A stretch of DNA of 64,000 nt from Candidatus Marinacidobacterium sp. (GTDB lineage Bacteria > Acidobacteriota > Vicinamibacteria > Marinacidobacterales > Marinacidobacteraceae). The notes under the pieces were generated by a model. That model worked only from the letters and a program-made list of their open reading frames with translations, ran no database searches and had not been told where the DNA came from. The stretch spans positions 2,870,317 through 2,934,316 of the forward strand of contig OZ252286.1 in NCBI GenBank assembly GCA_965250045.1, in the 5' to 3' direction. Both the position numbers and the translations under genes were made by a program. This document shows positions 3,473 through 45,778 of the stretch, piece by piece; position 1 is the stretch's first letter, and each line of letters begins with the position of its first letter.

Positions 3473-3593
3473 CAGCCTGTGGTGGAACCCGGGTGAGCGC
3501 CGAGAGCGGGGAGGCGCCCGGCTGACAAGGCGCGTGAGGGAGGAGCCCCCACCGGGAGAACTGGGCCGTCTGGGTTTCACCACAGGCTGCTAA
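3469..3593. repeat. MITE copy a (short deletion variant), TIR CAGCCTGTGGTG / CACCACAGGCTG, flanked by CTAA
   Basis: Inverted termini at 3473-3486 and 3576-3589; internal segments match copies at 35508, 37399 and 45554. The left CTAA overlaps the TAA stop of the upstream gene. Confidence 0.75.
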
Positions 3594-9165: not shown

Positions 9166-9279
9166 GGTCCAAGCATACCCACACGGCTTCGGCGCGCGCC
9201 ACCCTCGCGGGCAACCCCCGAAGCGCGTCCGCCGGAGCACGCGCTCCCGAGCGGGGTTGAACGGTGTCACAATTCCCGG

Positions 9280-17042: not shown

Positions 17043-17196
17043 GCCGAATGTTGCCTCGTGCCCGCCGCTTTTGGCCGGGACTTCGTCTCGGGGGACGGCG
17101 GGTGGGACGGCCACTTGTCTGGCGCCGCCCGCTCAGCGCGTCGAAAAGGGAGTAACCGGTGAAGGTTAGCATCAGGGAAACGATGCAGACCTTCCG

Positions 17197-17663
17197 ATGT
17201 TCCGTGGCTCTGGCCGATGTTCCGTAGCTCTGGCGGTTCCGCTCGACGCGGTCTTCCGGTTCTTTTCGGATGCCGGAAACCTGGAAGGCCTCACCCCGCC
17301 CTGGCTCCGTTTCCGGGTCGTCGAAGGAGACGTCCCGATGTTCCGCGGCCGGCGGATCGACTATCGGCTGCGGCTTCGCGGTCTGCCGCTCCGGTGGCAC
17401 AGCGAAATCACTGCGTGGGATCCCCGCATCGCTTTGTTGACGAGCAGGTAGTTGGCCCCTACCGGCGCTGGATTCATGAACACCGGTTCGAGGCCCGCGA
17501 GCGGCCGGGCAGGGGCCCGGTGGTGATCGCGAGCGATGAAGTGCAATACCAGGCCCCGGGTGGACGGCTCGTGAACCGGTTTCTGGTTGCGCCTGACCTG
17601 AAACGCATCTTCGCCTACCGCACGAAAAGGCTGAAGGAGCGGTTCGCAACGCCGGACGACTGA
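17197..17663 (+). pseudogene. SRPBCC-family (polyketide cyclase/dehydrase-like) gene with -1 frameshift in a C4 run near 17425
   Basis: Two overlapping ORFs in different frames together give an SRPBCC protein (...LRWHSEITAWDP | PHRFVDEQVVGPYRRWIHEHRFE...). Adding one C to 'gatccccgc' restores the frame. Confidence 0.5.
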
Positions 17664-17699: not shown

Positions 17700-17992
17700 G
17701 GACACCGCGGACGCGCTTATCGGCCAGGGTGCCGTGAGTGCCTTGAGAATTGGTGCTGTTCGCCGCCTGCGGCGGCGAGTGCCGGTCTGAATACCAGGTC
17801 TGAAGACCGGCGTTCCCAAGCCACGCCAGCGGCTTCGGATAGGCACCGCACCCTTATCGGACGTCGCAAAGGGCCGGCGCGCTTCCGGATTGAGGCTCAA
17901 TCCTTATCGAAAGTCGCCTTCGCGACAAACCGGGGCGCGCCTATCGGATGCCGCGAAGCGGCTTCGGATAGGCACCGCACCCTTATCGGACG
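17700..17992. repeat. Tandem array of ~125-bp repeat units (left part, interrupted by IS insertion)
   Basis: Units of form 'ggcttcggataggcaccgcacccttatcggacgtcgcRaaggg...atccttatcgaaagtcgccttcgcgac...tatcggatgccgcg', with YTTATCGGAYG sub-repeats every ~30 bp. The array continues at 32111. Confidence 0.7.
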
Positions 17993-19380
17993 GAGCTATG
18001 GTCGAAAGTGGGTGACGTCGGGAGAAAGGGGTGGCGTATCGTGGGAGTAACCAACCTTCCACATCTCCAAGGAGGAGTGATACGCCATGACGGAGAGTAC
18101 CGTTGTTTTCCTTCCCTCAGCAGAGGGAGTTGAGGATCCGCTGACGGAGGTTCTGCGAGCGGGAGCCCGCGAGCTGGTGAGGCACGCGGTGGAGGCGGAG
18201 GTGGCGGCGCTGCTGGTGGCGTATGAGGATCACCGGACCGGAGGCGGCCGTCGGCGCGTGGTGCGTCACGGGCATGGCCCGGAGCGGGCGATCCTGACGG
18301 GGATCGGTCCGGTACCGGTGCGTCGGCCGAAGGTTCGGGACCGGGGTGGCGCGGGAGAGGATCGTGTCCGGTTCTCTTCGCGGATCCTGCCGCGATTCGC
18401 GCGGCGGACGCGCTCGCTGGACGCGGCGCTGCCGACGCTGTATCTGCTGGGAGTATCGAGCGGGGACTTTGGGGAAGCGCTGTCGGAGCTGTTGGGTTGT
18501 GGGGCCTCGGGGCTGTCGCCGGGCGTGATCGGCCGTTTGAAGGCGGAGTGGGAGTCGGAACACGAGCGCTGGCGTCTGCGGGATCTGTCGGACCGGCGGT
18601 ATGTCTACGTGTGGGCGGACGGGATCTACCTTCAGGGCCGGCTGGAAGACGAAAAGCAGTGCGTTCTGGTGCTGATCGGGGCGACGCCGGAGGGCAAAAA
18701 GGAACTGCTGGGGTTCCAGACGGGGTTCCGGGAGAGCGCCCAGAGTTGGCGGGAACTGCTGGAGGATCTCAAGGGGCGTGGCCTCCAGATCCCCCCGGAG
18801 CTGGCGATCGGGGACGGAGCTCTCGGCTTCTGGAAGGCGCTGGACGAGGTCTTCCCCAAGACCCGCCGCCAGCGCTGCTGGGTCCACAAGACCGCGAACA
18901 TACTGAACGCGTTGCCCAAGTCCCGGCACCGGAACGCCAAGCAGGACCTGCATCAGATCTGGATGGCGGAGGGGCGCGCCGAGGCGGAGCAGGCGATGGA
19001 CACCTTCGAGGCCAAATACCAGGCCAAGTATGGGAAGGCGGTCACCTGCCTGACCAAGGACCGCGACGCCCTGCTGGCCTTCTACGACTTCCCGGCCGAG
19101 CATTGGCAGCACATCCGGACCACCAACCCCATCGAGAGCGTCTTCGCTACCGTCCGGCATCGGACCGTTCGTAGCAAGGGATGCCTCTCTCACAAGACCG
19201 CACTGGCGATGGTCTTCAAACTGGTCATCGCTGCCAGCAAGACCTGGCGCCGCCTCAACGGCTACGAGCAGTTGCCCCGGCTCATCCAGGGCGTCAAATT
19301 TACCGACGGCATTCAAGCCGACGAAACCGAAACCCGCGCCGCCGCCTGATCATGTTGTCACCCACTTTCGGCCATAGCTC
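17993..19380 (+). mobile_element. IS256-family insertion sequence, copy 1 (1388 bp)
   Basis: Terminal inverted repeats GAGCTATGGTCGAAAGTGGGTGACG / CGTCACCCACTTTCGRCCATAGCTC; encodes a 420-aa transposase. Confidence 0.85.
18087..19349 (+). CDS. IS256-family (mutator-type) transposase
   Basis: 420 aa; typical IS256 architecture with catalytic region ...VWADGIYLQ...CWVHKTANILNALPK... Confidence 0.85.
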   Translation: MTESTVVFLPSAEGVEDPLTEVLRAGARELVRHAVEAEVAALLVAYEDHRTGGGRRRVVRHGHGPERAILTGIGPVPVRRPKVRDRGGAGEDRVRFSSRILPRFARRTRSLDAALPTLYLLGVSSGDFGEALSELLGCGASGLSPGVIGRLKAEWESEHERWRLRDLSDRRYVYVWADGIYLQGRLEDEKQCVLVLIGATPEGKKELLGFQTGFRESAQSWRELLEDLKGRGLQIPPELAIGDGALGFWKALDEVFPKTRRQRCWVHKTANILNALPKSRHRNAKQDLHQIWMAEGRAEAEQAMDTFEAKYQAKYGKAVTCLTKDRDALLAFYDFPAEHWQHIRTTNPIESVFATVRHRTVRSKGCLSHKTALAMVFKLVIAASKTWRRLNGYEQLPRLIQGVKFTDGIQADETETRAAA

Positions 19381-19822
19381 GATTTCTTGAGCGCGAAGCC
19401 ATCAGCGGCTCGGCGGCCGTTCGGTCCGTTGTCCTTCCCGAATACGATCTGCCGAGCCACCCGGGGCGGCGGCTTGAACACGGGCTCCCAGTCCCGCACT
19501 TCGAGCTGTTCGATCCGCCCGTAATTCACCTCCTGCATCAGCTCGACGAGGCGTCGCCTGGCAGGAGTCAGGGCCGCCTTGGTCACATCCGTCATTTCCG
19601 GACCTCCTTTCGCGCTTTGGCGCATCAACGAAATCGCCCCCTCGGAGGCAGGTCCGACGAGGGTTCCTTCCAGGGAGCGTTGCCCGGACTTACCGGACGG
19701 AGCCGTCGGGGGAAGAGCTCTCGTCGGAGAGCTATGGTCGAAAGTGGGTGACGGCGAGAGAAGGGGGTGGCGTATCGTGGGAGTAACCAACCTTCCACAT
19801 CTCCAAAGAGGAGTGATACGCC

Positions 19823-20862
19823 ATGACGGAGAGTACCGTTGTTTTCCTTCCCTCAGCAGAGGGAGTTGAGGACCCGCTGACGGAGGTTCTGCGAGCGGGG
19901 GCCCGTCAGTTGGTGAGGCACGCCGTGGAAGCGGAGGTGGCGGCGCTGCTGGCGGCCTACGCCGATCATCGGACCGAGACGGGCCGTCGGCGACTGGTGC
20001 GTCACGGGCATGGCCCGGAGCGGGAGATCCTGACGGGGATCGGGCCGGTTCCGGTGCGGCGGCCGAAAGTACGGGACCGCGGAGGCGGGGGGGAGGATCG
20101 GATTCGGTTTTCCTCGACGATCCTGCCGCGTTTCGCGCGCCGGACGCGCTCGTTGGACGCGGCGCTGCCGACGCTGTATCTGCTGGGAGTGTCGAGCGGG
20201 GACTTCGGGGAGGCGCTGTCGGAGCTTGTGGGTCCGGGGGCCTCGGGGCTGTCGCCTGGTGTGATCGGTCGTTTGAAGGCGGAGTGGGAGGCTGAGCACC
20301 AGCGCTGGCGTGCGCGGGATCTCTCGGATCGGCGGCATGTGTATGTCTGGGCGGACGGGATCTACCTTCAGGGGCGTCTGGAGGACGAGAAGCAGTGCGT
20401 TCTGGTGCTGATCGGGGCAACGCCGGAGGGCCGGAAGGAGCTGTTGGGGTTCCAGACGGGGTTCCGGGAGAGCACCCAGAGCTGGCGGGAGCTGCTGGAG
20501 GACCTGAAGGGGCGCGGCCTCTCGATCCCCCCGGAGTTGGCGATTGGCGACGGGGCTCTCGGGTTCTGGAAGGCGCTGGATGAGGTCTTCCCGAAGACCC
20601 GCCGCCAGCGCTGCTGGGTTCACAAGACGGCGAACGTGTTGAACGTGTTGCCCAAGTCCCGGCAGCGGAATGCAAAGCAGGATCTGCATCAGATCTGGAT
20701 GGCGGCGAGCCGCGCCGAGGCGGAGCAGGCGATGGACACCTTCGAGGCCAAATACCACGCGAAGTATGCGAAGGCGGTCCCCTGCCTGACCAAGGACCGG
20801 GAGGCGTTGCTTGCGTTCTACGACTTTCCGGCCGAGCACTGGCAGCACATCCGGACCACGAA
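19823..20862 (+). pseudogene. IS256-family transposase of copy 2, interrupted (N-terminal 346 codons; C-terminal remnant 22635-22857)
   Basis: Collinear with the copy 1 transposase until the nested IS insertion point. Confidence 0.75.
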
Positions 20863-22625
20863 GGACTGTCAGAAATTCCGTGTGTAGGCCGGCGATTTTG
20901 GAAACTGGGCTTGGTTTGCTTCCCGGCATTGTATGACCGGGCCGATGGGGATCTGGCCGGCGCGCCCGAGGGGGCCAGCCGGGGGCGGGTAGGGACGCCG
21001 GGGGTTTTTGGAGTTCAAGGAGAGGGGCGGCGCCCGAGGCTCTCCACGGGCCAAACCTCTCCAGCAAACTCCAAGCTCCAAGGAGAGCCTGTGGGAAGGG
21101 TGGGAAACGCGTCCCGCTCCCCGAATCGTCCGGCAGCAAGGCGCGATGCGGTTCCAGCGTTTTCCAAGTCCTGGGGGAATCGCTCCGGACGAAGCGGTCC
21201 CTCGCGATCCGGTCGCCACGGGCGCCGCGATTTCCCCGGGACGGCGCTTTCCACGGGCTCAAGGCGGCGCTTTCGCGAACCCGCCGGGGGCCGTGAGGCG
21301 GACCGGCCGCCGCGCCCCGGGGGGCGGCACGCGGCGGGCTCACACGACCTCCACCGGGAATCGGTCCCCGAACAGGATGGCGAACTCGGCCCGCGCCTGG
21401 AACCAGTAGATCTGCGGCCGCTGCCACTTCCGCTCGATCTTCCGCAGCGTCAGGTAGATCAGCTTCGCCGCCGCCCGGTCGTTCGGAAAGTGGCCCCGCG
21501 TCCGTACCGCCCGCCGCACCGTGCTGTTCAGGCTCTCGATGGCGTTCGTCGTGTAGATCACCCGCCGGATCGGCGCCGAAAACGCGAAGTACGGGATCAC
21601 CTGCGTCCAGTTCCGCCGCCAACTCCGCACGATCGCCGGGAACTTCCGGCCCCAGGCACCCGCCTCGAACGCGTCCAGCGCCTCCTCCGCCTCCTCCAGC
21701 GTGTCCGCCCGGTAGATCGGACGCAGCGCCGACGCCAGCTCCTTGCGCTCCTTCCAGGACGCGTGCGCCAGCGAATACCGGATCAGGTGCACCACGCAGG
21801 TCTGCACCGTCGCCTCCGGAAACGCCGCCTCGATCGCCTCCGGAAACCCCTTCAGCCCGTCCACCACCACGATCAACACATCCCGAACGCCCCGCGCCTT
21901 CAGCTCGTTCATCACCCCCAGCCAGAACTTCGCCCCCTCGTTCGCCGCCGTCCACATCCCCAGGATCTCCTTCCGCCCCAGCGCCGTCACCCCGATCGCC
22001 AGGTGCACCGCCTTGTTCTGAACCAAACCCTCCTCCCGGATCTTCACCCGCAACGCGTCGAAATACACGATCGGATACACCGCCTCCAACGGCCGCGAAC
22101 GCCACTCCCGCAGCTCCTCGTGAACCTCGTCCGTCACCTTCGAGATCAACTCCCGAGACACCGTAACCCCATACAACTCCTCCACATGCGCCCGGATCTC
22201 CCGCGTCGTCATCCCCCGCGCATACAGCGAAATCACCTTCTCGTCGAACCCCGGTAGACGACGAACCCACTTCTCGATCAACTGCGGCTCAAAACGTCCC
22301 CCTCGATCCCGCGGAACCGCCAACTCCACCGATCCCGCCCCCGTCAACACCCGCTTCCGGTTGTGCCCGTTCCGGTGGTTCCCTGACCCCACCTCCTCCT
22401 CCCGCGAAAGGTGCAACTCCATCTCCACCTCCAGCGCACGCTCCGCCAGCGACTTCTGAAGCGCCGCAAACAACTCCCCGCTCCGGAGCGCCTCCCGTGG
22501 ATCCTCTCCCCCCAGAAGCTCGTCCAAAAGCTCTCCGCCGATCCGACTCTGCCGTCGCGTCATCTCTCTTCTCCTTAGCTCGTCTAGGTTACGCCCCTCC
22601 TACACACGGAATTTCTGACAGGCTC
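20863..22625 (-). mobile_element. Second, unrelated IS256-family IS nested inside copy 2; 9-bp TSD GACCACGAA
   Basis: TIRs GGACTGTCAGAAATTCCGTGTGTAGG / CCTACACACGGAATTTCTGACAGGCTC. GACCACGAA is duplicated at 20854-20862 and 22626-22634. Confidence 0.75.
21340..22563 (-). CDS. IS256-family transposase (second family)
   Basis: 407 aa; classic IS256 transposase (…VYPIVYFDALRVKIREEG…VDGLKGFPEAIEAAFPEATVQTCVVHLIRYSL…). Confidence 0.85.
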   Translation of the reverse strand: MTRRQSRIGGELLDELLGGEDPREALRSGELFAALQKSLAERALEVEMELHLSREEEVGSGNHRNGHNRKRVLTGAGSVELAVPRDRGGRFEPQLIEKWVRRLPGFDEKVISLYARGMTTREIRAHVEELYGVTVSRELISKVTDEVHEELREWRSRPLEAVYPIVYFDALRVKIREEGLVQNKAVHLAIGVTALGRKEILGMWTAANEGAKFWLGVMNELKARGVRDVLIVVVDGLKGFPEAIEAAFPEATVQTCVVHLIRYSLAHASWKERKELASALRPIYRADTLEEAEEALDAFEAGAWGRKFPAIVRSWRRNWTQVIPYFAFSAPIRRVIYTTNAIESLNSTVRRAVRTRGHFPNDRAAAKLIYLTLRKIERKWQRPQIYWFQARAEFAILFGDRFPVEVV

Positions 22626-23924
22626 GACCACGAACCCCATCGAGAGCGTCTTCGCCACCGTCCGGCATCGCACTGTTCGCAGCAAGGGATGCCTCTCCCA
22701 CAAGACGGCGCTGGCGATGGTCTTCAAGCTGGTCATGGCCGCCAGCAAGACCTGGCGCCGGCTCAACGGCTACCAACATTTGCCCCGGCTCATCCAGGGC
22801 GTCAAATTTACCGACGGCATTCAAGCCGACGAAACCGAAACCCGCGCCGCCGCCTGATCATGCCGTCACCCACTTTCGACCATAGCTCCTCGTCGGAGCC
22901 TTCACCCCTCAATGGCGAAATTTCGTTAAGCGGCAGGAGGCGCCACGAACAGCGGAAGCGCCCCCGGCGTGCGGTCCATCCGCCTCGCCGTCTCCGGGGC
23001 GTTAACTCGTGTCATGAATGAAGGCTTCGGTGGCCCGAACTATCAAGTCGTTTCTCCGTAACCACTTGGGAATGCTCGACTTTCTCGGCTTCACTCCCCG
23101 ATTCAGCCAGGATGCGGCGCCTCTTGCGGTGCCGGAGGTAGCCTTGGGCCAGGATCGAGGCGATCTCCGCGACGACCTCGTCGAGGGCGTCGGGGATGGG
23201 TGGGTTGCTCGGCATCCGGTTCTCCTCCTCGCGGGCGCCGCGAAAGAGGAGGCGTCGTGGATGCCGGACGGGACGGAATGGTCGTCAGGAGCCGTTGGAG
23301 TCCGCTCGACACCGCGCGCGGGCGATGTCGCCGGCACCCACAACGGGCTCCGTTCTCACGGCCGCTGCCGCTGTCTGGTGATCAGCCGGCCCCCCGTGGC
23401 CCGGCTTCCGCTGGATACCTACCGGCGCCGGTTAGGAAATGTCGAAACGCGGGGGCCCTTGGCAAAACGGGCTGTTAAACAACGCGGAGCGAAAAATGGA
23501 GAATCGGAGAATTCGGAAACGAAATCGCGGGGTCCCCATGCGCAACCCCCCTGGTTGCACGCGGCACCCCGCGTGGATCTTCCTAACCGGAGAATCGAGG
23601 AGAATGTGGGAATGGGCGTAACTGCTTGGAACAACGGTAGATACGACGAAGCCCCGGAGGGGTCACCCTCCGGGGCTTCGCGTTAACTATCGAGGCACTT
23701 TAGTTCGTCCTCGAAAAAATGGCTCCCCTTGCGCAACTTTCCCTTGTTCCGATCCAGCAATTTCGAGGCGGAAGCGTTGTCAAGCCCATTTCCGCCCCGC
23801 TGGTCAAAAAAGGCCCATCTCCAACGTCGGGACCAGGATATCTGGGTCGTCGTTCACCCTGGTGCTGACGGCGGGCCGCCCGTAGGGACCGGCAGGGGTT
23901 CACCCACTGCTCGGGGTCAGCTCC

Positions 23925-26900
23925 TCAGAAGGGGATCGACATTCGCACCATCACCGCTAGATCAGTCGGACCCGTTCTGTTCTTCCGCCTCGTGGCTTCC
24001 ATTTCCAACCTCAATGGCAGCGCCAGCTGCGAGCGTGGAGGCAGGCTACAAGCGGTCCCCCAGGCCAGCTCCCGGCCCTGTCCGGCCCAGCGCAGCCGGC
24101 TATAGGGCGTCAGCAGACACGGTAAGCCCAGCGCCTTCAGGCCGCCGTAGGCCACCTCGCTTTCCATCCGCGACTGCGAACCCATTCCCGCGGCATCCAT
24201 TCCCACCGGGTGCGTGACCATATTAGCGTTGTTCCATAGCGTCGTTCGGCCGCCTCCATCCTGGCCCCGCGAGGAGTTCACCGACACCCGCAACCCGCGC
24301 TGCTTCTCCCCCGGGTCCCAGCTCACCTGCAAGCCCGCACCCCAGTCCCGGTAGTCACTCTCATGCACCACCAGCACCCGCCCGTACAGCGCCGCGTCCA
24401 GGCCACTGTGCGCGTCCAGATACCCCAGACGGAAACCGGTTTCCATCCCAGCGCCCCGATCCGCGTCGCCCCGGTCAAAACGCCCGCCCGCTTCCGCCGT
24501 CAGGCTCAGTGACCGACCCGCCGACAGCGCCGCGTCATGCACCCACTCCAGCATCAACCGGCCCCGCTGGGCTTCACCGCGCACCGCCGCGATGTCCGCC
24601 AACGCGTCGGTCCCCAGTTGCGTCGTGAAGGCATCCGCGCGCACACCCCACTCATTGCTGCCCCGCCCCCCGAGCACCGCCCGCACGCCCCCGGCGAACA
24701 TCCGAAACTCGGCGCCGAAGTCGTGCGTCCGGCCCGGCTCTTCCACCTCCACTTGACCCTGTCCCAAGCCGCCAATGCCCCACACGCTCAACCGCGCGCT
24801 CGGCTGCCAGTACACATACGGGTGAACCGTGTTCATCCGACTCTCCAGCAACCCCGCCACCCCATCGTCCGTGTACTCCAGGTCCCCCCAGCTGCGCATG
24901 AACGACAGCCCCGCCAGAACCCGATCGTTGGCATACAGGTCCAGACCTACATGCGCGGCTTCGAGACCGCCGCCATAGTCCATACCCAGCCGCGTCAAGT
25001 CGCCGTTGAAGCGCTGCAGATCACCCTGGGCCCACATTACCGGCACCCAACTCGTCTCGCCCTCGCTCTCTCCCAGGGACATCTCGAACGACGCTCCAGA
25101 AAGGTTGAGCGCTTGCCCCACCATGGCCGAGTACCCAGCCGATCCCGCGTCCCTGGTCCCAGCACCCGGGATGAGCTCTTGATCCCGCATCCCGGAGAAG
25201 TCCCCCGAGCCCGGTCCCAGCCGCGCGTCTCCAAACCCGGAACCAAAGTGTCGATCCTGACCGGAGACTCGCCCGCCAGGCGCCGCACCGTAGCCGGAAG
25301 ACATGGCCGAGCCGCTCTGGGCGGCGCGCGCGAGGTTCTCAAACGAACCCAGCACCACATTGCGCAGCCACGAGACGGGCGTGCCGGTCTCCCGATGCTC
25401 CGAGTTCCAATCCGATCCCGTTGCCGCGCTGGTCCGGGCTGCGCCGGCCTGGTCTGCGCCCCGCGCGTGCTCAACCAAGGAGCCTTCTGCTCCTCTGCCG
25501 CCGCTGCCCTCACTGCCTACCCGCTCCGATTCGCCCGCGCCCAGAGCCGCCGCGCGATTGGCGCGCCCCGGCTGCAATGTCGATACCGCCCCACCCGACG
25601 ACCCCAGACGACTCCACTGCCGATGCCGCTCAAAGCGACCCTCTATCGCCGTCTGCGCGCTCGCTCCCATCGAGCGTCCCATCACCGCCAACATCGCCTC
25701 CAGCGAGGACGTGAACTGCTCCGCCGTCCGCCGCTGTCTGAAGCTCACTCTTGTCTCCGAGAGCTCTCCGCCGCTCACCGCCTCCGGCAATACGCCCAGG
25801 CTCAGCACGATCCCCTCCCCGGGATCGCTCACTTCATCCGTCAGCACCTCCACGGAAATCGTCCCCTCACGCTCGCCTTCCTCGAACACCAACGTCGACG
25901 GCACTTCCTGAAAGTCCTCGGGCGTCGTCCCGCCTTCGAGCGCCACCACGAGCGGTATCTCCAGCCGCCGGTCCGCGGCCGGGGAAACTGTCACCTTGAT
26001 CTCTGCCACCTCGCCTTCCTGCACTTCATACGCTGCCTGCCCAAAGCTCACCACGAGCTCCACCAGCCCCTTGTCTTCGAGCGTCACTATCGCCACGGCC
26101 GGTTCCCCGGCCAGCACGATCTCCGGCAGCTCCCCAAAGCCCAGCTCCACCGTCTCGTCGTCCCCATCCCCATCATGGTTGGCTGCAATCGTGAAGGTCT
26201 GTTCCGTCGCGCCGGCCCCGAAGGTAAGCGTTCCCGTGCCCGCCTCGGCATCCCAATCCTTCAACCCCTCGACCTGGTAGTCGCCTACTTCCGTCGTCTC
26301 CGGCCGCGTCACCCGGACCGGAATCGCCAACTCTTCGTCACCCGCCTTGCTCAGCTTCACCGTCACCGTCACCGACTCCCCACCTTCGGTTGCCGTGTAG
26401 CTCTCCGCCGCATAGCTCACCACAATGCCTGTCGCAATGACGAACGGCGCCGCCGCCTCATTGCCGTTGCTGGCGGCGTCCTCAGCCACATCCTCGGCAA
26501 CCTCCACCACCACCGGCTGTCCCACCACCGTCGGCTCGATTGTGGCTCGATACTCACTCGATGACACCGCGGTGAAGTCCGCTACCGTCCCGTTGGTGAC
26601 CTGAATATCGCTCTGCTCGAAACCCGTGACCGCCTCGCTAAAGGTGATCGTTACCTCGAACGCACCCCCCACCGGTCCCGCGGCCGCGCTGGTGATCTCC
26701 ACCTTCGGTGGGGCCGCCGCCTCGCTCGTGATCGCCACCGTGGGGCCGGCGCGGTCCCTCGCCGCGGCCCGGTGGACCTTGATGGTGTAGGTCTGAGTGG
26801 GCGTCCCGTCCGCGGCAGTCACCTGCACCGGGATGGAGGTTGCAGCACCCAAGGCCAGGGCAATCGCGTCACTGGCGCTCCGGCTCGCCACCACGCTGCC

Positions 26901-29900
26901 GTTCACCGTCACCGTCGCGCCGACTTCAGCCGTCGTCGGCGTCACTTTCACACTGTCTGTAGAGGCCTCCACGGCGACGGCGTAGCTCGTGGTCGTCGCG
27001 GCGAAGTCCGGTGTCAGCGTCCCCGGCGAGACGGTCAGGTTCAACAGGTTCGCGTTGGAGCCGCTCTCAAGGATCGCCACGCTCACCGGTACGTCGATCG
27101 TGACGATCCCGTCCGTGACGGCGTAGCGAAACATATCGGTGCCGGTGAAGCCGGCCTTGGGCGTATAGGTGACGGTGGTCCCGTTGGTGTTGATCTCGGC
27201 GGTCCCGTTGCTCGGGCCCGTTCCGGGTAAGCCCACCTCGACCACGCGGAGGATCGTCCCCGCGTCCACGTCCGAGTCGTTTTCCAACACGCCAATGACG
27301 ATTGGAATGTCTTGGCTGGTCTCGGCGGTGTCAGCCTTCGCCTCCGGCGGGTCGTTCACGGCATTCACGTTAATGGTGATGGTGTATGACGCCGCGCTGT
27401 CGAGCTCGCCGTCATTGACCTTGAAGTCGAACGTCGCGAAAGCGGCGCCGTTGGCATTGGCTGGCGGGGTGTACCTGAACTCGTCGGTGGCGGAGAACGT
27501 CACTTGCGGAGCCGTGTTGAGGTCGGTAATGTCCGTGCCATTGAACGACAGCGTCCCCCGGTCCGTCCCGGGCAGCGCGGTGATCTTCACATGGTCCAAC
27601 GTGGCGCCGTCGACGTCCGAGAAGCCAAAGTCCGCCTCACCAAACGTGTACGTCGTGTCCTCGTCCATGGACACCGTCTTGTCGGAACCCGTGAGGGAGT
27701 CGTCCACGGCATTCACGTTAATGGTGATGGTGTATGCCAACTCGCTGTCGGCCGCGCCGTCATTGACCTTGAAGTCGAACGTCGCGAAAGCGGCGCCGTT
27801 GGCATTGGCTGACGGGGTGTATGTGAGATTGCCGGCATCGAGCCCGGTCTTTGCCACCTGCCTGGGCGTCCTGACATCGGTAATGGGCGTGCCGCCAACC
27901 GACAGCGTTCCCCGGTTCTGCTCGGGCAGTGCAGTGATCTTCAAGCGGTTCAGCGTGGCGCCGGATTTGACGCTCGTGAAGCCGAAGTCCGCCACCTTAA
28001 AGGTGTACGTCGTGTCCTCGTCCGTGGACACTGTGTTGTGGGAAGCCGTGGGGGCGTCGTTCACCGGCGTGGCGGTCGTGGTGGATGCAGGGCCGCGACC
28101 GGAAGCGTTCTCGGCACGCACCGCAAACGTGTACTGGGTGCCGTTGGTCAGTCCGATCACGGTGGTGGTGGTAGTGCTCGCACCGCTGTCGCTGATGTCG
28201 GCGAAGGTCGTGCCACCGTCCTTGCTGACCTGGTACTTGGTGATCGTGTTGTTGCCCGGATCGTCCCAGGACAGAGTGACTTGGCCGTTACTCGGCGTGG
28301 CCGTGAGGTTCGTCGGGGGGGCCGGCGAGACCACCATCGGCGTGGCATCCACGGCGGCTGGCCAACTGCTGTCCGCGGAGTCCTGTGTCGCCAGCACCGT
28401 GAAGGTGTATTCGGTGCCGTTGTTCAACGAGTCAATGGCAGCGATCGTCTTCGACCCCGAACCGGCTGGCACGTCCACCGAATTGCCGTCCGAGATGTCT
28501 ACCCGATAATCGGTGATCCCGGGGTTCCTGTCCCACTCCAGGAAGACCCGGCTGCTGTCCGGCGTCGCCACCAAATTGGTCGGCGCGGGCCACAGTGGCG
28601 TGGCAGTCGCGGTGGATGCCGCGCCGTAACCCCACCAGTTCACCCCGCGCACCGCCAGCGTGTACTGGGTGCCGTTGGTCAGACCGGTCACGGTGGTGGT
28701 GGTAGTGCTCTTGCTGCTGCCGCTGATGTCGGTGAAGGTCGTGCCACCGTCCATGCTGATCTGGTACTTGTAGATCGTGTCGTTGTCCGGATCGCTCCAG
28801 GACAGAGTGGTCTGGCGGTCGTCACCCTCGGTGGCCGTAAGGTTCTCCGGGGCCGGCATGGATATCGGTCTGGCCGTCACGGTGGGTGATTCCTTACCGT
28901 TCAGCGCCCGCACACTGAAGGCGTACAGGGTGCCGTTGGTCAGTGGATAAACGGTGCGAGTCGTCGTCGAACCCGATCCGGGAGGAAGGAATATGGTGTT
29001 ACGCCGGACACCGTCTTCATAGACATAGATATAATAATCGTCGATGTCGTCGTGGCCGTTGTTCCACTCCACGGTAACCCGACCCTGGCCCGCCGTCGCC
29101 ACCAAACCGGTCGGCGCGGGCCACAGTGGCGTGGCGGTCACGGTGGATTCCGCGCCGTTACCGCCAGCGTTCACCGCCCGCACCGCAAACGTGTACTGGG
29201 TGCCGTTGGTCAGACCGGTCACGGTGTAGCTGGTCGTGGTGTCATCGCTGCCGCTGATGACGCTGAAGGAGCCACCGTCGGTGCTGTACTCGTACTCGTC
29301 GATTGTGCTGTCGCCCGGATCGTCCCAGGTAAGACCGATCTGTCTGTCACCCACCTCGGCCTCGAGATTCGTCGGGGCGGTCGGGGCCAGTGCCGGCGTG
29401 GCGGTCACGGTGGATTCCGCGCCGTTACCGCCAGCGTTCACCGCCCGCACCGCAAACGTGTACTGGGTGCCGTTGGTCAGGCCGGTCACGGTGTAGCTGG
29501 TCGTGGTGTCACCGCTGTTGGGGATGTCGGCCCAGCTGCTGTAGGTCCCCGTGTCGGTTTTCCGGCGATACTGGTATTTCGTGATGGTGTTGTTGGCCGG
29601 ATTGGCCCAGGACAGAGTGACCTGGCCGTCATCCGGCGTGGCCGAGAGGTTCATTGGGGCGGCCGGGGCGCGAATTTGCCCATTGACCCTGATTTGTAAC
29701 ACACTGAAATTAATCGAACTCCACCCGGTTGAGCCCGGGGTGCGCGCGTGGCGTTCATTCCTGATGCTCCACCCGATGGCCGAAGCGGAATCTTGGAGGT
29801 TAGATGTCGTATTGTCCCATTGGGGGTAACTAGCACTGCCGTTAGGCGCGAAAACCATTTGCACGAAGTATTGGGTGTTTGCACTCAGACTGGCACCGGC

Positions 29901-30290
29901 AGGGGCGGTGAACGTTCGGAGTCCCGCCGCCACGTTGGCCGGGTTGTTCAAGGTATATAATGTATTGCCCCCCGGATCGCCCGATCCGTCGTCACCCCTC
30001 ACCGTTACCGTCAGGGTTCCGCTACCCGAAGCCACGCCTACGCCCAATTCGATACTTGTCAAGGAGTAGCCCAGTGTATTCTGGCCCGTGGTGAACCCCT
30101 GAGCATGGTCACTGGGATTTACGGGTGTCTGACCGGCGTTAGATTGGCCCGTATTGCTCACGAGCACGGTCTGGGCGTGCGCTGGCGCCGGAAAGCCAAG
30201 CATCAGCATCGCGGCGGCGAGGAATAAGCCGATGATTCTCAGCCGCGGGTCTTTCCTCCGCATCACGCCCTGAATATCCGAGCGGTCCAA
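23925..30290 (-). CDS. Giant (2121 aa) autotransporter-like surface adhesin: signal peptide, multiple FN3, cadherin-like/Ig-like and Calx-beta domains, C-terminal outer-membrane beta-barrel
   Basis: N-terminal signal RIIGLFLAAAMLMLGFPAPAHA; repeated FN3 units (...TKYQY...TSYTVTGLTNGTQYTFAVRAVNAGGNG...); VNDAPTA/VNDPPEA cadherin-like units; Calx-beta-like blocks. The C-terminal ~600 aa is Gly/aromatic-rich with alternating pattern and ends ...VRMSIPF (terminal Phe). Near-identical intragenic DNA repeats. Confidence 0.7.
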   Translation of the reverse strand: MDRSDIQGVMRRKDPRLRIIGLFLAAAMLMLGFPAPAHAQTVLVSNTGQSNAGQTPVNPSDHAQGFTTGQNTLGYSLTSIELGVGVASGSGTLTVTVRGDDGSGDPGGNTLYTLNNPANVAAGLRTFTAPAGASLSANTQYFVQMVFAPNGSASYPQWDNTTSNLQDSASAIGWSIRNERHARTPGSTGWSSINFSVLQIRVNGQIRAPAAPMNLSATPDDGQVTLSWANPANNTITKYQYRRKTDTGTYSSWADIPNSGDTTTSYTVTGLTNGTQYTFAVRAVNAGGNGAESTVTATPALAPTAPTNLEAEVGDRQIGLTWDDPGDSTIDEYEYSTDGGSFSVISGSDDTTTSYTVTGLTNGTQYTFAVRAVNAGGNGAESTVTATPLWPAPTGLVATAGQGRVTVEWNNGHDDIDDYYIYVYEDGVRRNTIFLPPGSGSTTTRTVYPLTNGTLYAFSVRALNGKESPTVTARPISMPAPENLTATEGDDRQTTLSWSDPDNDTIYKYQISMDGGTTFTDISGSSKSTTTTTVTGLTNGTQYTLAVRGVNWWGYGAASTATATPLWPAPTNLVATPDSSRVFLEWDRNPGITDYRVDISDGNSVDVPAGSGSKTIAAIDSLNNGTEYTFTVLATQDSADSSWPAAVDATPMVVSPAPPTNLTATPSNGQVTLSWDDPGNNTITKYQVSKDGGTTFADISDSGASTTTTTVIGLTNGTQYTFAVRAENASGRGPASTTTATPVNDAPTASHNTVSTDEDTTYTFKVADFGFTSVKSGATLNRLKITALPEQNRGTLSVGGTPITDVRTPRQVAKTGLDAGNLTYTPSANANGAAFATFDFKVNDGAADSELAYTITINVNAVDDSLTGSDKTVSMDEDTTYTFGEADFGFSDVDGATLDHVKITALPGTDRGTLSFNGTDITDLNTAPQVTFSATDEFRYTPPANANGAAFATFDFKVNDGELDSAASYTITINVNAVNDPPEAKADTAETSQDIPIVIGVLENDSDVDAGTILRVVEVGLPGTGPSNGTAEINTNGTTVTYTPKAGFTGTDMFRYAVTDGIVTIDVPVSVAILESGSNANLLNLTVSPGTLTPDFAATTTSYAVAVEASTDSVKVTPTTAEVGATVTVNGSVVASRSASDAIALALGAATSIPVQVTAADGTPTQTYTIKVHRAAARDRAGPTVAITSEAAAPPKVEITSAAAGPVGGAFEVTITFSEAVTGFEQSDIQVTNGTVADFTAVSSSEYRATIEPTVVGQPVVVEVAEDVAEDAASNGNEAAAPFVIATGIVVSYAAESYTATEGGESVTVTVKLSKAGDEELAIPVRVTRPETTEVGDYQVEGLKDWDAEAGTGTLTFGAGATEQTFTIAANHDGDGDDETVELGFGELPEIVLAGEPAVAIVTLEDKGLVELVVSFGQAAYEVQEGEVAEIKVTVSPAADRRLEIPLVVALEGGTTPEDFQEVPSTLVFEEGEREGTISVEVLTDEVSDPGEGIVLSLGVLPEAVSGGELSETRVSFRQRRTAEQFTSSLEAMLAVMGRSMGASAQTAIEGRFERHRQWSRLGSSGGAVSTLQPGRANRAAALGAGESERVGSEGSGGRGAEGSLVEHARGADQAGAARTSAATGSDWNSEHRETGTPVSWLRNVVLGSFENLARAAQSGSAMSSGYGAAPGGRVSGQDRHFGSGFGDARLGPGSGDFSGMRDQELIPGAGTRDAGSAGYSAMVGQALNLSGASFEMSLGESEGETSWVPVMWAQGDLQRFNGDLTRLGMDYGGGLEAAHVGLDLYANDRVLAGLSFMRSWGDLEYTDDGVAGLLESRMNTVHPYVYWQPSARLSVWGIGGLGQGQVEVEEPGRTHDFGAEFRMFAGGVRAVLGGRGSNEWGVRADAFTTQLGTDALADIAAVRGEAQRGRLMLEWVHDAALSAGRSLSLTAEAGGRFDRGDADRGAGMETGFRLGYLDAHSGLDAALYGRVLVVHESDYRDWGAGLQVSWDPGEKQRGLRVSVNSSRGQDGGGRTTLWNNANMVTHPVGMDAAGMGSQSRMESEVAYGGLKALGLPCLLTPYSRLRWAGQGRELAWGTACSLPPRSQLALPLRLEMEATRRKNRTGPTDLAVMVRMSIPF

Positions 30291-30722
30291 TGCGTGACGA
30301 CCCCTACAATGAGCCGTCCGGTCAGGACTTTTCTTCGCAGGTTTGGCGCGTCAACAAAGTTGGGGACCCTCCTTGTTCTGTTTCAGCCATTGTACAGCGT
30401 TGTTGCATGGATCATCCCGAAGGATGCCTTATCATCGTGTTTTTCAACACAGGGGATAACCTTGGATGCCACATAAGTTCAACGTAGCGCGACGGCACAA
30501 GTTTGCTAAGGCGCAGTACCGGGTGTCAAGGGCGGACCAAAACTAGACCAGAGTGGCGGAGGGGAATTCGCTACCACCAACTCCACGAAGCGAAGCTCTT
30601 GCGCCTGATCGTCCTTCAGGATGCCCAAGAACCGCTCGAGCTGTCTGGCGTACGTAATCTGGCTCTCGTTCTCGTACTCGCAGGTCTTGCCGAAATATCG
30701 GGAGGCGAGGCGGTTGGCGATC

Positions 30723-32110
30723 GAGCTATGGTCGAAAGTGGGTGACGTCGGGAGAAAGGGGTGGCGTATCGTGGGAGTAACCAACCTTCCACATCTCCAA
30801 GGAGGAGTGATACGCCATGACGGAGAGTACCGTTGTTTTCCTTCCCTCAGCAGAGGGAGTTGAGGATCCGCTGACGGAGGTTCTGCGAGCGGGAGCCCGC
30901 GAGCTGGTGAGGCACGCGGTGGAGGCGGAGGTGGCGGCGCTGCTGGTGGCGTATGAGGATCACCGGACCGGAGGCGGCCGTCGGCGCGTGGTGCGTCACG
31001 GGCATGGCCCGGAGCGGGCGATCCTGACGGGGATCGGTCCGGTACCGGTGCGTCGGCCGAAGGTTCGGGACCGGGGTGGCGCGGGAGAGGATCGTGTCCG
31101 GTTCTCTTCGCGGATCCTGCCGCGATTCGCGCGGCGGACGCGCTCGCTGGACGCGGCGCTGCCGACGCTGTATCTGCTGGGAGTATCGAGCGGGGACTTT
31201 GGGGAAGCGCTGTCGGACCTGTTGGGTTGTGGGGCCTCGGGGCTGTCGCCGGGCGTGATCGGCCGTTTGAAGGCGGAGTGGGAGTCGGAACACGAGCGCT
31301 GGCGTCTGCGGGATCTGTCGGACCGGCGGTATGTCTACGTGTGGGCGGACGGGATCTACCTTCAGGGCCGGCTGGAAGACGAAAAGCAGTGCGTTCTGGT
31401 GCTGATCGGGGCGACGCCGGAGGGCAAAAAGGAACTGCTGGGGTTCCAGACGGGGTTCCGGGAGAGCGCCCAGAGTTGGCGGGAACTGCTGGAGGATCTC
31501 AAGGGGCGTGGCCTCCAGATCCCCCCGGAGCTGGCGATCGGGGACGGAGCTCTCGGCTTCTGGAAGGCGCTGGACGAGGTCTTCCCCAAGACCCGCCGCC
31601 AGCGCTGCTGGGTCCACAAGACCGCGAACATACTGAACGCGTTGCCCAAGTCCCGGCACCGGAACGCCAAGCAGGACCTGCATCAGATCTGGATGGCGGA
31701 GGGGCGCGCCGAGGCGGAGCAGGCGATGGACACCTTCGAGGCCAAATACCAGGCCAAGTATGGGAAGGCGGTCACCTGCCTGACCAAGGACCGCGACGCC
31801 CTGCTGGCCTTCTACGACTTCCCGGCCGAGCATTGGCAGCACATCCGGACCACCAACCCCATCGAGAGCGTCTTCGCTACCGTCCGGCATCGGACCGTTC
31901 GTAGCAAGGGATGCCTCTCTCACAAGACCGCACTGGCGATGGTCTTCAAACTGGTCATCGCTGCCAGCAAGACCTGGCGCCGCCTCAACGGCTACGAGCA
32001 GTTGCCCCGGCTCATCCAGGGCGTCAAATTTACCGACGGCATTCAAGCCGACGAAACCGAAACCCGCGCCGCCACCTGATCATGTCGTCACCCACTTTCG
32101 ACCATAGCTC
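30723..32110 (+). mobile_element. IS256-family IS, copy 3 (near-identical to copy 1)
   Basis: Same TIRs; transposase differs from copy 1 at only ~2 residues. Confidence 0.85.
30817..32079 (+). CDS. IS256-family transposase (copy 3)
   Basis: 420 aa, ~99.5% identical to 18087-19349. Confidence 0.85.
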   Translation: MTESTVVFLPSAEGVEDPLTEVLRAGARELVRHAVEAEVAALLVAYEDHRTGGGRRRVVRHGHGPERAILTGIGPVPVRRPKVRDRGGAGEDRVRFSSRILPRFARRTRSLDAALPTLYLLGVSSGDFGEALSDLLGCGASGLSPGVIGRLKAEWESEHERWRLRDLSDRRYVYVWADGIYLQGRLEDEKQCVLVLIGATPEGKKELLGFQTGFRESAQSWRELLEDLKGRGLQIPPELAIGDGALGFWKALDEVFPKTRRQRCWVHKTANILNALPKSRHRNAKQDLHQIWMAEGRAEAEQAMDTFEAKYQAKYGKAVTCLTKDRDALLAFYDFPAEHWQHIRTTNPIESVFATVRHRTVRSKGCLSHKTALAMVFKLVIAASKTWRRLNGYEQLPRLIQGVKFTDGIQADETETRAAT

Positions 32111-32335
32111 TATCGGACGTCGCGAAGGGCCGGCGCGGTTCCAGATTGAGGCTCAATCCTTATCGAAAGTCGCCTTCGCGACGAATCCGGGCGCGCTTAT
32201 CGGATGCCGCGCCAGCGGCTTCGGATAAGCACCGCCTCCTTATCGGACGTCGCGAAGGGGCCTCCGGGGTCCAAAACGTGGCTGCATCCTTATCGAAAGT
32301 CGCCTTCGCGACTTCCGATAAGGATGCTTATGTTA
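32111..32335. repeat. Tandem ~125-bp repeat array (right part)
   Basis: About two further units continuing the array interrupted at 17992. Confidence 0.7.
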
Positions 32336-32379
32336 AATAACGAGGTGCAGAGCCAATCGCCAGCCCAGAACGGCCGCCA

Positions 32380-33282
32380 CTAACCCTCCTCCCGAAACGC
32401 CGTCACGTCGCGATGGAAGACGAAAAGCGAATCCATGTTCCCCGACGGCGATTCGAAGTTGTAGGTTCGCCCGCGGAGCACTTTCACCCCCAGGTTGTTG
32501 TTCAGATAGTCCAGCTCGAAGCGCTCCACCTGTGCGAACGGCAATTGGAACGCATCCTTGTGATCCGTCTGGTAGTCGAACCCCTCGGGCGTCGCAACCA
32601 GCGTCCCTTCGCAGGACCCGAACCGATGTTTGTGTACCGCGGCCACCTTGACGTCCAGTGACGCCACCATGTCGCCGAAGTCCACTCGCACCGGCACCGC
32701 TTTCCTTTCGACCGCCACCCGACGGGAAACGACCTCGTACCCCTCGATGGACACCGTCAGGTTGTACTCCCCGGGCTGAAGATCCGCGATCGTGACCGGG
32801 GTGTTTCCCTTGAAGTTTCGGTCCACAAAGACGTTCGCTCCGGCGATGTCACTCTCCACGACGATGGACCCGAGCATTTCAGTGAGGTTCGCCGCCAGCG
32901 AGCGGATCCGGCCTCCGCGGATGGTGATGGTTGTCTCCAGGGAGTGATATCCCTCTTTTTCCACCCGAACCGGGTACTCGCCGACGCCCAATTCCTCCCA
33001 GGCCCCCGGAACCGTGCCAAGCAAACGGCCGTCCAGGAGAACACTGGCGCCCTCGGTGCCCTCTATCTGCAGGGTGCCGGTGGTGGGCGGCGCCGGGGGT
33101 GGAGGCGGTGGCGCTCTCTCTGCTTCGGGCGCCTTGGGCGGCGGCGCCTCTTCGGCCGGTGCGGTTTCTTCCGCTGGGGCCGCAGACTCCTCGCCTCCAC
33201 CACATCCTGCGAGGGAAGCGAGGCTGGCCAGGAGAGCGAGTGATCGAAAGAAGATGCGCGTCGACTCAGAGCGACGAATCAT
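32380..33282 (-). CDS. PEGA-domain lipoprotein
   Basis: Signal/lipobox LALLASLASLAGCGG; Pro/Ala-rich linker; PEGA-like repeats (LQIEGTEGASVLLDGRLLGTVPG..., ANVFVDRNFKGNTPVTIADLQPGEYNLTV). Confidence 0.6.
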   Translation of the reverse strand: MIRRSESTRIFFRSLALLASLASLAGCGGGEESAAPAEETAPAEEAPPPKAPEAERAPPPPPPAPPTTGTLQIEGTEGASVLLDGRLLGTVPGAWEELGVGEYPVRVEKEGYHSLETTITIRGGRIRSLAANLTEMLGSIVVESDIAGANVFVDRNFKGNTPVTIADLQPGEYNLTVSIEGYEVVSRRVAVERKAVPVRVDFGDMVASLDVKVAAVHKHRFGSCEGTLVATPEGFDYQTDHKDAFQLPFAQVERFELDYLNNNLGVKVLRGRTYNFESPSGNMDSLFVFHRDVTAFREEG

Positions 33283-33784
33283 CCGCAGAGCCTCCCACCT
33301 CACGGTAACCCCGGTCGTAGTAGAGAAGCGGTGCGGCGTCCTCCCGCTCTACCCTGCCCCCGGTCACCCGGCCGATGAACAGCGTGTGATCGCCCTCCGG
33401 GTGGGCGCCGACAGTGCTGCACTCGAGCCAACCGATACAGCCGGAGAGCTGCGGCGGATTCCCAGCCCCGCCGGCTCCCACCGCGGCGGCAAAAGACTCG
33501 CCGAACTGATCGGCCGAGTCGGACCCCGGCTTCGCGAAATGCCCCGAAACGTCAGCCTGATCAGCAGCGAGAAGGTGCACCCGAAACCCCCCGGCGGCGA
33601 TCGCAGAGTGCGCCCGGGCGGAGTTCACGATGGAGACGAGCACCAACGGCGGTTCGAGACTCACCGGAATGAACGAACTGACGGTGATCCCTCTCGGCCC
33701 CCCCGGACCGCTCGCGGTCACAACGGTCACAAGTTGCGGAGCGCGACGCATCAGCGCACGGATCGCCGAGGCCGCGTCGCTCAT
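33266..33784 (-). CDS. Flavin reductase-like (FMN-binding split-barrel) protein
   Basis: 'LVTVVTASGPGGPRGITVSSFIPVSLEPPLVLVSI' flavin reductase domain signature. ATGA overlap with the OsmC stop. Confidence 0.7.
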   Translation of the reverse strand: MSDAASAIRALMRRAPQLVTVVTASGPGGPRGITVSSFIPVSLEPPLVLVSIVNSARAHSAIAAGGFRVHLLAADQADVSGHFAKPGSDSADQFGESFAAAVGAGGAGNPPQLSGCIGWLECSTVGAHPEGDHTLFIGRVTGGRVEREDAAPLLYYDRGYREVGGSADDSSL

Positions 33785-35507: not shown

Positions 35508-35694
35508 CTAACAGCCTGTGGTGAAACCCACGCGGCGTTCGAGCGGCGATGCATCCCGCCTGAACCGCGCCGCTTTGCGGCGCTCTGCGTTGCGTTTCGG
35601 TCGAAATACACTCGGTATTCCTCCCTCACGCGCCTTGTCAGCCGGGCGCCTCGCCGCTCTCGGCGCTCACCTGGGTTCCACCACAGGCTGCTAA
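35508..35694. repeat. MITE copy b (187 bp) with TIRs and CTAA flanks
   Basis: CTAA-CAGCCTGTGGTG...CACCACAGGCTG-CTAA; the internal sequence is highly similar to copy d. Lies in the promoter region of the Prx-like selenoprotein operon. Confidence 0.8.
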
Positions 35695-35773
35695 CCACGA
35701 TTTGCGGCGCACAACGGGCCGCCCCACCAGCACTGGCCGCCGGCATTCCCCCTCGAGGACCCTGTCGATCTGT

Positions 35774-37398: not shown

Positions 37399-37648
37399 CT
37401 AGCAGCCGGTGGACAAAGTGGAGTGGCCGCCGAGGCTGGCCAATCTCCCGGTGGGGGCGAGGCGCCCGGCTGACCCAATTCTCCCGGTGGGGGCGGCGCG
37501 ATTTGGGAGGAGCCCCCAGCGAGAGAACTGGCCCGGGTGTATTCCGACCGAATCGGAACAGAGAGCGTAGCGGTTCAGCCTGGATGCATCGCCAGCCGAG
37601 CCCCCACGGGGAGAACCGGGCCAGGTGACTTTGTTCACAGGCTGCTTG
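37399..37648. repeat. MITE copy c (250 bp, inverted orientation, degenerate TIRs)
   Basis: The reverse complement aligns to copy d across its length. Sits immediately upstream of the parA start. Confidence 0.7.
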
Positions 37649-45553: not shown

Positions 45554-45778
45554 CTACAGCAGCCTGTGCACAAAGTCACGCGGCGTTCGGCTGGCGATGC
45601 ATCCCGGCTGAACCGCGCCTCTGCGAGGCGCTCATCGTTGCGCTTCGGTCGAAATACACTCGGTATTTCTCCCTCGCGCGCCTTGTCAGCCGGGTCCCCA
45701 CCGGGAGAACTGGCCCCACCGGGAGAACTGGGCCTCGTCAGCCTCGGCGCTCACGCCACTTTGTCCACAGGCTGCTAA
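45554..45778. repeat. MITE copy d (225 bp; long TIRs CAGCCTGTGSACAAAGT...)
   Basis: TIR cagcctgtgcacaaagtcacgcggcg / cgtcagcctcggcgctcacgccactttgtccacaggctg, flanked by CTAC / CTAA. Overlaps the 5' end of the pal ORF. Confidence 0.8.

Follow-up and report, generated by a model that had tools for sequence, protein, structure and literature searches.

Insertion sequences (IS) of the IS256 family are known to form composite transposons, such as Tn4001, and to transpose through circular copy-paste intermediates (PMC10266640). The locus described here lies in a 64-kb stretch of DNA from Candidatus Marinacidobacterium sp., the whole of which is referred to as the window and in which all coordinates are given unless a related locus is named. 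The 14,118-bp block at 17993-32110 is probably a Tn4001-type composite transposon made of two direct copies of a new IS256-family IS. Like Tn4001 and Tn5281 of Staphylococcus and Enterococcus, it consists of a cargo flanked by two IS256-family copies, encodes a Mutator/IS256 transposase, and is surrounded as a unit by a duplication of the 8- to 9-bp kind. It differs in having an uncultured host of the Vicinamibacteria, IS copies in direct orientation, and an 11.3-kb cargo of an adhesin gene and decayed mobile-element fragments in place of a resistance gene; the composite is, moreover, known from sequence alone. The assignment draws on the structure of the block, a duplication found only at its outer ends, the restoration of the target array upon its removal, empty sites in relatives, and the habit of this IS of generating 9-bp duplications. 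The insertion sequences of the window are labeled IS-A, IS-B, IS-C, and IS-D.

Two insertion sequences within one target-site duplication

A repeat search of the region from 15 to 35 kb identified three copies of one IS, two of them near-identical and the third split into two pieces. The near-identical copies, IS-A (17993-19380, plus strand) and IS-C (30723-32110, plus strand), lie in direct orientation and are each 1,388 bp; in a pairwise alignment they are 99.7% identical, with four differing bases, one near IS position 496 and three within the last 50 bp. Each retains an intact 420-amino-acid (aa) transposase open reading frame (ORF), at 18087-19349 in IS-A and 30817-32079 in IS-C. An earlier note on this DNA had described both copies, the approximately 11.3 kb bracketed by them, and a shared 9-mer directly outside their outer ends, all of which were found as stated. 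A 24-bp terminal repeat, GAGCTATGGTCGAAAGTGGGTGAC, is present at six of six IS ends in the window with no more than one mismatch, against no matches in shuffled sequence. At the outer ends of IS-A and IS-C these repeats are perfect, and the inverted repeat extends to approximately 44 bp at 77 to 82% complementarity. The identical 9-mer, TATCGGACG, abuts both outer ends (17984-17992 and 32111-32119), while the inner flanks, GATTTCTTG at 19381 and TTGGCGATC at 30714, differ from it and from each other. The duplication thus surrounds IS-A and IS-C as a pair, neither of which has one of its own, and this is the signature of movement as one unit.

As the 9-mer is part of the repeated motif of the array in which the block lies, the objection that the flanking copies merely reflect repeat periodicity had to be tested. 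TATCGGACG occurs four times in the window, always inside the array (17855, 17984, 32111, and 32241). When 17993-32119 was deleted, Tandem Repeats Finder reported a period of 129 bp with 2.8 copies, 89% matches, and a score of 562, and the rebuilt middle unit aligned without gaps to both neighboring units; when both 9-mers were kept, the array was no longer reported. Since the array is restored only with one 9-mer removed, the second is an extra copy arising from the insertion and not the motif of the next unit, and tandem periodicity alone does not explain the pair. The earlier proposal that this deletion recreates an uninterrupted array unit therefore stands, with the unit length revised from approximately 125 bp to 129-130 bp. 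The left part of the array (17820-17992) comprises unit 1 and the first 36 nucleotides of unit 2, and it follows, downstream, an SRPBCC-like gene ending at 17663; similar sequence is conserved in loci L002, L003, L007, and L011 of related species. The right part (32120-32340) comprises the rest of unit 2 and unit 3, includes a final conserved hairpin (ATCCTTATCGAAAGTCGC..GCGACTTCCGATAAGGAT), and lies downstream of a PEGA-domain gene on the minus strand (32380-33303).

To compare the site with related genomes, as the earlier note had suggested, one genome per species was scanned with the flanking PEGA-domain protein, which yielded 11 related loci at 68 to 88% aa identity. All are from metagenome-assembled genomes (MAGs) of Acidobacteriota/Vicinamibacteria, some labeled Candidatus Marinacidobacterium, and these matches place the window in that lineage; a literature search with the genus name yielded nothing. 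BLASTN showed that the sequences corresponding to 13.2-17.66 kb and 32.15-35.4 kb of the window are only 120 to 400 bp apart in six of them (L002, L003, L004, L007, L010, and L011), with neither IS nor cargo between the flanks, and the array of L002 carries an uninterrupted TATCGGACG. The IS end was absent from all 15 fetched loci. Because the flanks adjoin each other in these six relatives without IS or cargo, the 14-kb block is a derived insertion, and synteny with the related loci places the window on a chromosome. The claim that the whole block inserted as one unit is accordingly supported by the empty sites and by the absence of single-IS duplications, as well as by the 9-bp duplications that the IS generates elsewhere.

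The transposases of IS-A and IS-C match Pfam PF00872 (Transposase_mut; E = 5.6e-64) and the IS256 family model NF033543 of NCBIfam, for IS-A with 321.6 bits against a curated cut-off of 150, the corresponding score of the IS-D transposase being 411.4 bits. The family was recognized by a length of about 1.2 to 1.5 kb, a single ORF, terminal inverted repeats, and an 8- to 9-bp target-site duplication; the present element, with its 1,388 bp, single 420-aa transposase ORF, terminal inverted repeats, and 9-bp duplications, shows all of these. Among the IS256-family elements of the plasmid collection, the best DNA identity to it is only approximately 70%, and the proteins closest to its transposase (96 to 97% identity) all belong to unnamed contigs of metagenomes; searches for proteins exactly matching the transposase or the PEGA-domain protein came back empty. 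Judged by these comparisons, the flanking element is a previously undescribed IS of the IS256 family, new by the usual identity criteria.

Copies of this IS at other sites also carry 9-bp duplications. In locus L019 a single copy with 96.6% identity is flanked by TCTGGTGGA, and the older copy within the cargo, IS-B, is flanked by CTCGTCGGA (19720-19728 and 22889-22897). The copy in L020 has no duplication and adjoins a partial inverted copy. As a contrasting control, in L027 a decayed homologue of the adhesin is surrounded by three identical copies of a further IS256-family element, every one of them with a separate 8- to 9-bp duplication. A point difference at the inner end of IS-A (GGCC for GTCG..., TTTCGGCC) was considered as an inactivating mutation that would favor use of the outer ends; this was rejected, as the L019 copy, around which the duplication is regular, has this variant at its ends too, and the L020 copy has it at its right end.

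Composition of the cargo

The cargo is a mosaic of a truncated phage-type gene, IS-B with IS-D inside it, a spacer with a dispersed repeat, an intact adhesin gene, and a second truncated gene. The fragment next to IS-A (19381-19728, minus strand) consists of the promoter-proximal region and the first 71 to 72 codons (19595 down to 19383) of a gene for a 109-aa protein, is 91% identical to the homologue P0029 over residues 1 to 74, and is cut off by IS-A. In L017 the 109-aa gene is part of a phage-like replication module that also encodes a LexA-like repressor, a PD-(D/E)XK nuclease, AAA_24, DUF669, and ERCC4 proteins, a RecD-like helicase, and a primase, and members of the 109-aa family were found in six IMG/VR viral contigs. 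L017 is contiguous across the point of IS-B insertion and thus represents an empty site for that copy; its homology to the window ends approximately 45 bp past IS-B.

IS-B (19729-22888, plus strand) is 92 to 94% identical to IS-A and IS-C and is present in two pieces, 19729-20862 and 22626-22888, as the earlier note had recognized in describing an older diverged copy split by a second IS. Its transposase gene was destroyed by IS-D (20863-22625, minus strand), a different IS256-family element of 1,763 bp with a 407-aa transposase gene (21340-22563; PF00872, E = 5e-129), a 23-bp perfect inverted repeat, CTGTCAGAAATTCCGTGTGTAGG, near its ends, and the 9-bp duplication GACCACGAA at 20854-20862 and 22626-22634. 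Beyond its transposase gene, IS-D includes approximately 480 bp of GC-rich noncoding sequence (20863-21340), part of which is similar (76%) to sequence beside the partial IS copy in L020 (8691-8999).

In the spacer (22898-23924), GGAGGAG precedes a 67-aa ORF on the minus strand (23015-23215), and a noncoding dispersed repeat without a match in Rfam lies at about 23304-23819, downstream of the adhesin gene. Copies of this repeat with 82 to 88% identity occur in L018 at 1874-2218, 2868-2933, and 9274-9753, in one case upstream and not downstream of a barrel-domain gene. The adhesin gene (23925-30263, minus strand) is followed by its AT-richer upstream region (30264-30505, minus strand), the first 130 bp of which is conserved with the homologous gene in L016, and then by the second truncated gene (30506-30721, minus strand), of which the last 71 codons and the stop remain beside the cut made by IS-C. 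This gene has a weak match to the phage family phrog_21102 and is not part of the 109-aa family; neither it nor the 67-aa ORF had a tblastn match in any of the fetched loci.

The cargo had been described as visibly lower in GC than its surroundings, which the base composition does not bear out. Its GC content is 0.647, compared with 0.676 in the left flank and 0.649 in the right, and the adhesin gene has a GC content of 0.648 and a GC content at third codon positions (GC3) of 0.80, within the host ORF range of 0.72 to 0.86. The part of that description concerning an AT-richer region 5' of the adhesin holds, as the 459 bp upstream of the gene, with a GC content of 0.553, is the only such stretch. 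A foreign origin based on composition was thus rejected given the host-like GC and GC3; nothing in the composition points to a distant source, in keeping with movement inside the lineage.

Routes to the present arrangement

Under the composite transposon reading, the donor locus would have been rich in phage and mobile-element DNA, and two IS copies would have inserted there independently, one in the 109-aa phage-type gene and the other in the second gene, with the dead older IS copy and the adhesin gene lying between them. In such a donor, the missing codons 72 to 109 of the 109-aa gene would be expected beside an IS copy or the 9-mer CAAGAAATC, and the N-terminal remainder of the gene cut at 30721 beside GATCGCCAA. 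The DDE transposase would then have acted on the outermost ends, namely that of IS-A on the left and that of IS-C on the right, and by analogy with IS256 the block may have moved by a copy-out/paste-in process via a circular intermediate. Integration would have been into the TATCGGACG motif of the palindromic array between two convergent chromosomal genes, and repair of the 9-bp staggered cut would have produced the flanking duplication. We infer the order of events in the donor and the use of a circular intermediate. That the inner junctions cut two genes unrelated to each other agrees with independent insertion of two IS copies in a donor locus and later transposition from the outer ends, and is not what is expected of a circle with one normally inserted IS. 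An in-frame join of the two inner fragments had suggested the latter, as a cointegrate with a small circle carrying one IS in a single gene; this was rejected because the homologues are 109 aa and match the first half only, the second fragment being unrelated.

Several points weigh against this reading. A second copy of the composite, a donor site, or a circular junction was not found in the limited search space. In exact scans of Joint Genome Institute (JGI) metagenomes, neither the inner junction nor the array with its 9-mer had a match, and a megablast search of the cargo against the plasmid collection was equally negative. Transposition of the block as a whole is therefore deduced from one insertion. 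The observed arrangement is, in addition, compatible to the same extent with direct composite transposition and with homologous recombination of an IS-cargo circle into a resident IS. In the latter route, a single IS would have inserted in the array, making the TATCGGACG duplication, and a circle of IS plus cargo, which recombination between the paired IS of a donor composite could have released, would later have recombined into it to leave IS-cargo-IS within the old duplication. Such a history yields exactly the structure seen, and the four differences between IS-A and IS-C, with three clustered at the right end, would be compatible with different histories of the two copies. It nevertheless still needs an IS-cargo-IS composite in the donor and is thus less economical, no single-IS allele was present at the site in any fetched locus, and inner flanks derived from two unrelated genes mean that the circle was not a small replicon with one normally inserted IS. 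We regard it as unlikely.

The window may itself come from a metagenome assembly, for which a 1.4-kb repeat is a classic site of misjoining, and this too counts against a composite. One IS could then lie in the array and the IS-flanked cargo elsewhere, the assembler having collapsed IS copies and placed the cargo between them. All related sequences are MAGs, several adhesin homologues are broken, which suggests error-prone long-read assemblies, and the left flanking gene in the window carries frameshifts. An artefact of this kind is nonetheless very unlikely, as it would need two switching errors, IS-A and IS-C were resolved with four distinct differences, the 6.3-kb adhesin ORF is unbroken, and the third diverged copy and the IS nested in it are cleanly resolved, each with exact 9-bp duplications. 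Finally, the position of the target 9-mer in a repeated motif makes two insertions at equivalent positions conceivable, if only at an extremely low probability. Two IS would have inserted independently at the same position of neighboring array units, and double recombination with an IS-flanked segment would have replaced the array between them. Each unit holds one 9-mer and species differ in how many units they have, so that the loss of one unit could go unnoticed. Hitting the same nucleotide in adjacent units, a double crossover, and a donor composite would all be required, which makes this the least economical route, and the duplications CTCGTCGGA, TCTGGTGGA, and TATCGGACG do not reveal a strict target sequence by which repeated hits would become likely. 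Transposition of a composite bounded by IS-A and IS-C is therefore retained as the probable explanation.

The adhesin family and the variable intergenic spot

The adhesin had been assigned a TTG start at 30290 and a length of 2,121 aa; the most likely start is instead the ATG at 30263, giving 2,112 aa in an uninterrupted ORF of 6.3 kb. Its N terminus, MRRKDPRLRIIGLFLAAAMLMLGFPAPAHA followed by Q, was judged by inspection to be a typical signal peptide. The signal peptide is followed, in order, by a choice-of-anchor R domain (about 29676-30158), six FN3 domains, cadherin-like/Big and Calx-beta domains, a Gly/Ser/Ala-rich linker, and a predicted outer membrane beta-barrel formed by the final 388 aa (23928-25091). 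The domain search thus bore out the FN3/cadherin-like/Calx-beta passenger of the earlier description and added the choice-of-anchor R domain. The protein would be expressed and exposed on the cell surface.

Classical type Va autotransporters have a 12-stranded barrel with a helix in the pore. The adhesin resembles members of that class such as AIDA-I, EspP, and BrkA in its signal peptide, long repetitive passenger, linker, and C-terminal barrel ending in Phe, but it differs in lacking a C-terminal match to PF03797. No Pfam hit, including PF03797, was obtained for the last 499 aa at E values up to 1, no PDB sequence matched the final 388 aa, and hhalign of the C terminus with a PF03797 protein gave a probability of 0.1. 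An AlphaFold model of the C-terminal domain, built from an alignment of 20 homologues, is all-beta with approximately 18 long strands and a mean predicted local distance difference test score (pLDDT) of 70.9, and the best Foldseek hits of the domain are autotransporter beta domains (E about 1e-5; TM score 0.6, normalized to the target). The model and the structural hits support a predicted outer membrane barrel at the C terminus, and membership in the classical autotransporter family is not supported. Of the earlier proposal of an autotransporter-type adhesin, the barrel therefore remains as a prediction and the type is not supported, there being no autotransporter sequence signature, approximately 18 predicted strands, and 14-stranded barrels as the best matches in fold.

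The homology search that the earlier note had put forward identified only 28 homologues of the C-terminal domain in 5.8 billion proteins, all from the same lineage as the window. A homologue of the gene with 90% identity lies in a different context in L016, where homology to the window ends at 30395. Upstream of it (L016:1438-2146) are an IS5-like transposase C-terminal fragment and an excisionase-like helix-turn-helix ORF, and these neighbors indicate that the adhesin family lies in mobile-element-rich DNA in another genome as well. In L027 (5700-18400), a decayed homologue of the adhesin 3' end, made up of a Calx-beta fragment, an IS3-type insertion, and the barrel, lies among the three 100% identical IS256-family copies. 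In the same locus an OmpA-like gene (682 bp) and a 101-bp segment are each duplicated perfectly in inverted orientation, which points to either IS-mediated rearrangement or a problem of assembly.

The target had been called a tandem-repeat array. It is tandem, but is more precisely a set of locus-specific imperfect palindromes, conserved between convergent genes in related species. The palindromes are built on CTTATCGGA/CTTATCGAAAG and CTTATCGGA/TCCGATAAG, with similar ones at the same intergenic site in L002, L003, L007, and L011, and the number of units varies between species. The final hairpin is strictly conserved across species and is followed by GCTTATGTTAAATA. Possible roles would be those of a terminator, a REP-like element, or a protein-binding site. 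Stems are kept by paired changes, such as GCCGC/GCGGC in the window versus GTTGC/GCAAC in L003, and the changes between species look compensatory. Tandem imperfect palindromes between convergent genes, with stems kept through paired changes, recall repetitive extragenic palindromic (REP) sequences and bacterial interspersed mosaic elements (BIME). Unlike REP and BIME, with their many dispersed copies, the motif is confined to this one locus within the 64-kb window, and no associated REP transposase was seen. An Rfam search of the array gave no match. A role as a CsrB-like protein-sponge RNA, considered for its recurrent GGA motifs, was not supported, as in the predicted folds GGA lies in the stems of palindromes that fold equally on both strands.

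At the same intergenic position, L001 carries three genes (L001:11024-14472) matching the NsnA, NsnB, and NsnC defense proteins (E = 1e-128, 1e-99, and 2e-54, respectively); these NsnABC antiphage genes have largely replaced the palindromic array, of which only the last palindrome is kept. In L004 yet another small ORF occupies the position. The intergenic site flanked by the SRPBCC-like and PEGA genes has the look of a variable hotspot. The gene to the left of the array (17160-17663, plus strand) resembles an SRPBCC/cyclase-like protein, with an orthologue of 162 aa in L001; compared with L001 and L002, 20 bp of it are duplicated in tandem (17194-17234) and its frame changes a second time beyond this point, and it is either a pseudogene or affected by assembly errors. 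A dispersed element of approximately 190 bp with terminal inverted repeats (AGCCTGTGGTGAAACCCA ... TGGGTTCCACCACAGGCT) occurs in the window at 35510-35700, 45560-45694, 3470-3544, and 37495-37622, in L001 at about 18900-19250, and in L020 at 20782-20986, and looks like a miniature inverted-repeat element.

In every respect the mobile part matches known IS256-family biology, and the understanding of how these elements work is unchanged; what is new here is the IS itself, the host phylum, and the type of cargo. Less ordinary are the barrel domain of this adhesin family, which is uncharacterized, and the variable intergenic spot with its palindromes, to which the locus draws attention. With only 28 homologues, no Pfam family, and approximately 18 predicted strands, the C-terminal domain might represent a new, lineage-restricted class of outer membrane anchor or translocator distinct from type V barrels, in a family whose repeated shuffling in marine, possibly host-associated Vicinamibacteria would be the work of IS256-family elements, and the array might be a recurrent landing pad of mobile DNA, for the composite here and for NsnABC in L001; this broader interpretation is speculative and quite doubtful. 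The 9-bp duplications lie in three nested layers, from which the order of events at the locus can be read. An IS composite that carries a very large surface-adhesin gene, and not a resistance gene, in a poorly known uncultured phylum would provide a concrete mechanism by which repeat-rich cell surface proteins may be copied or relocated in these genomes.

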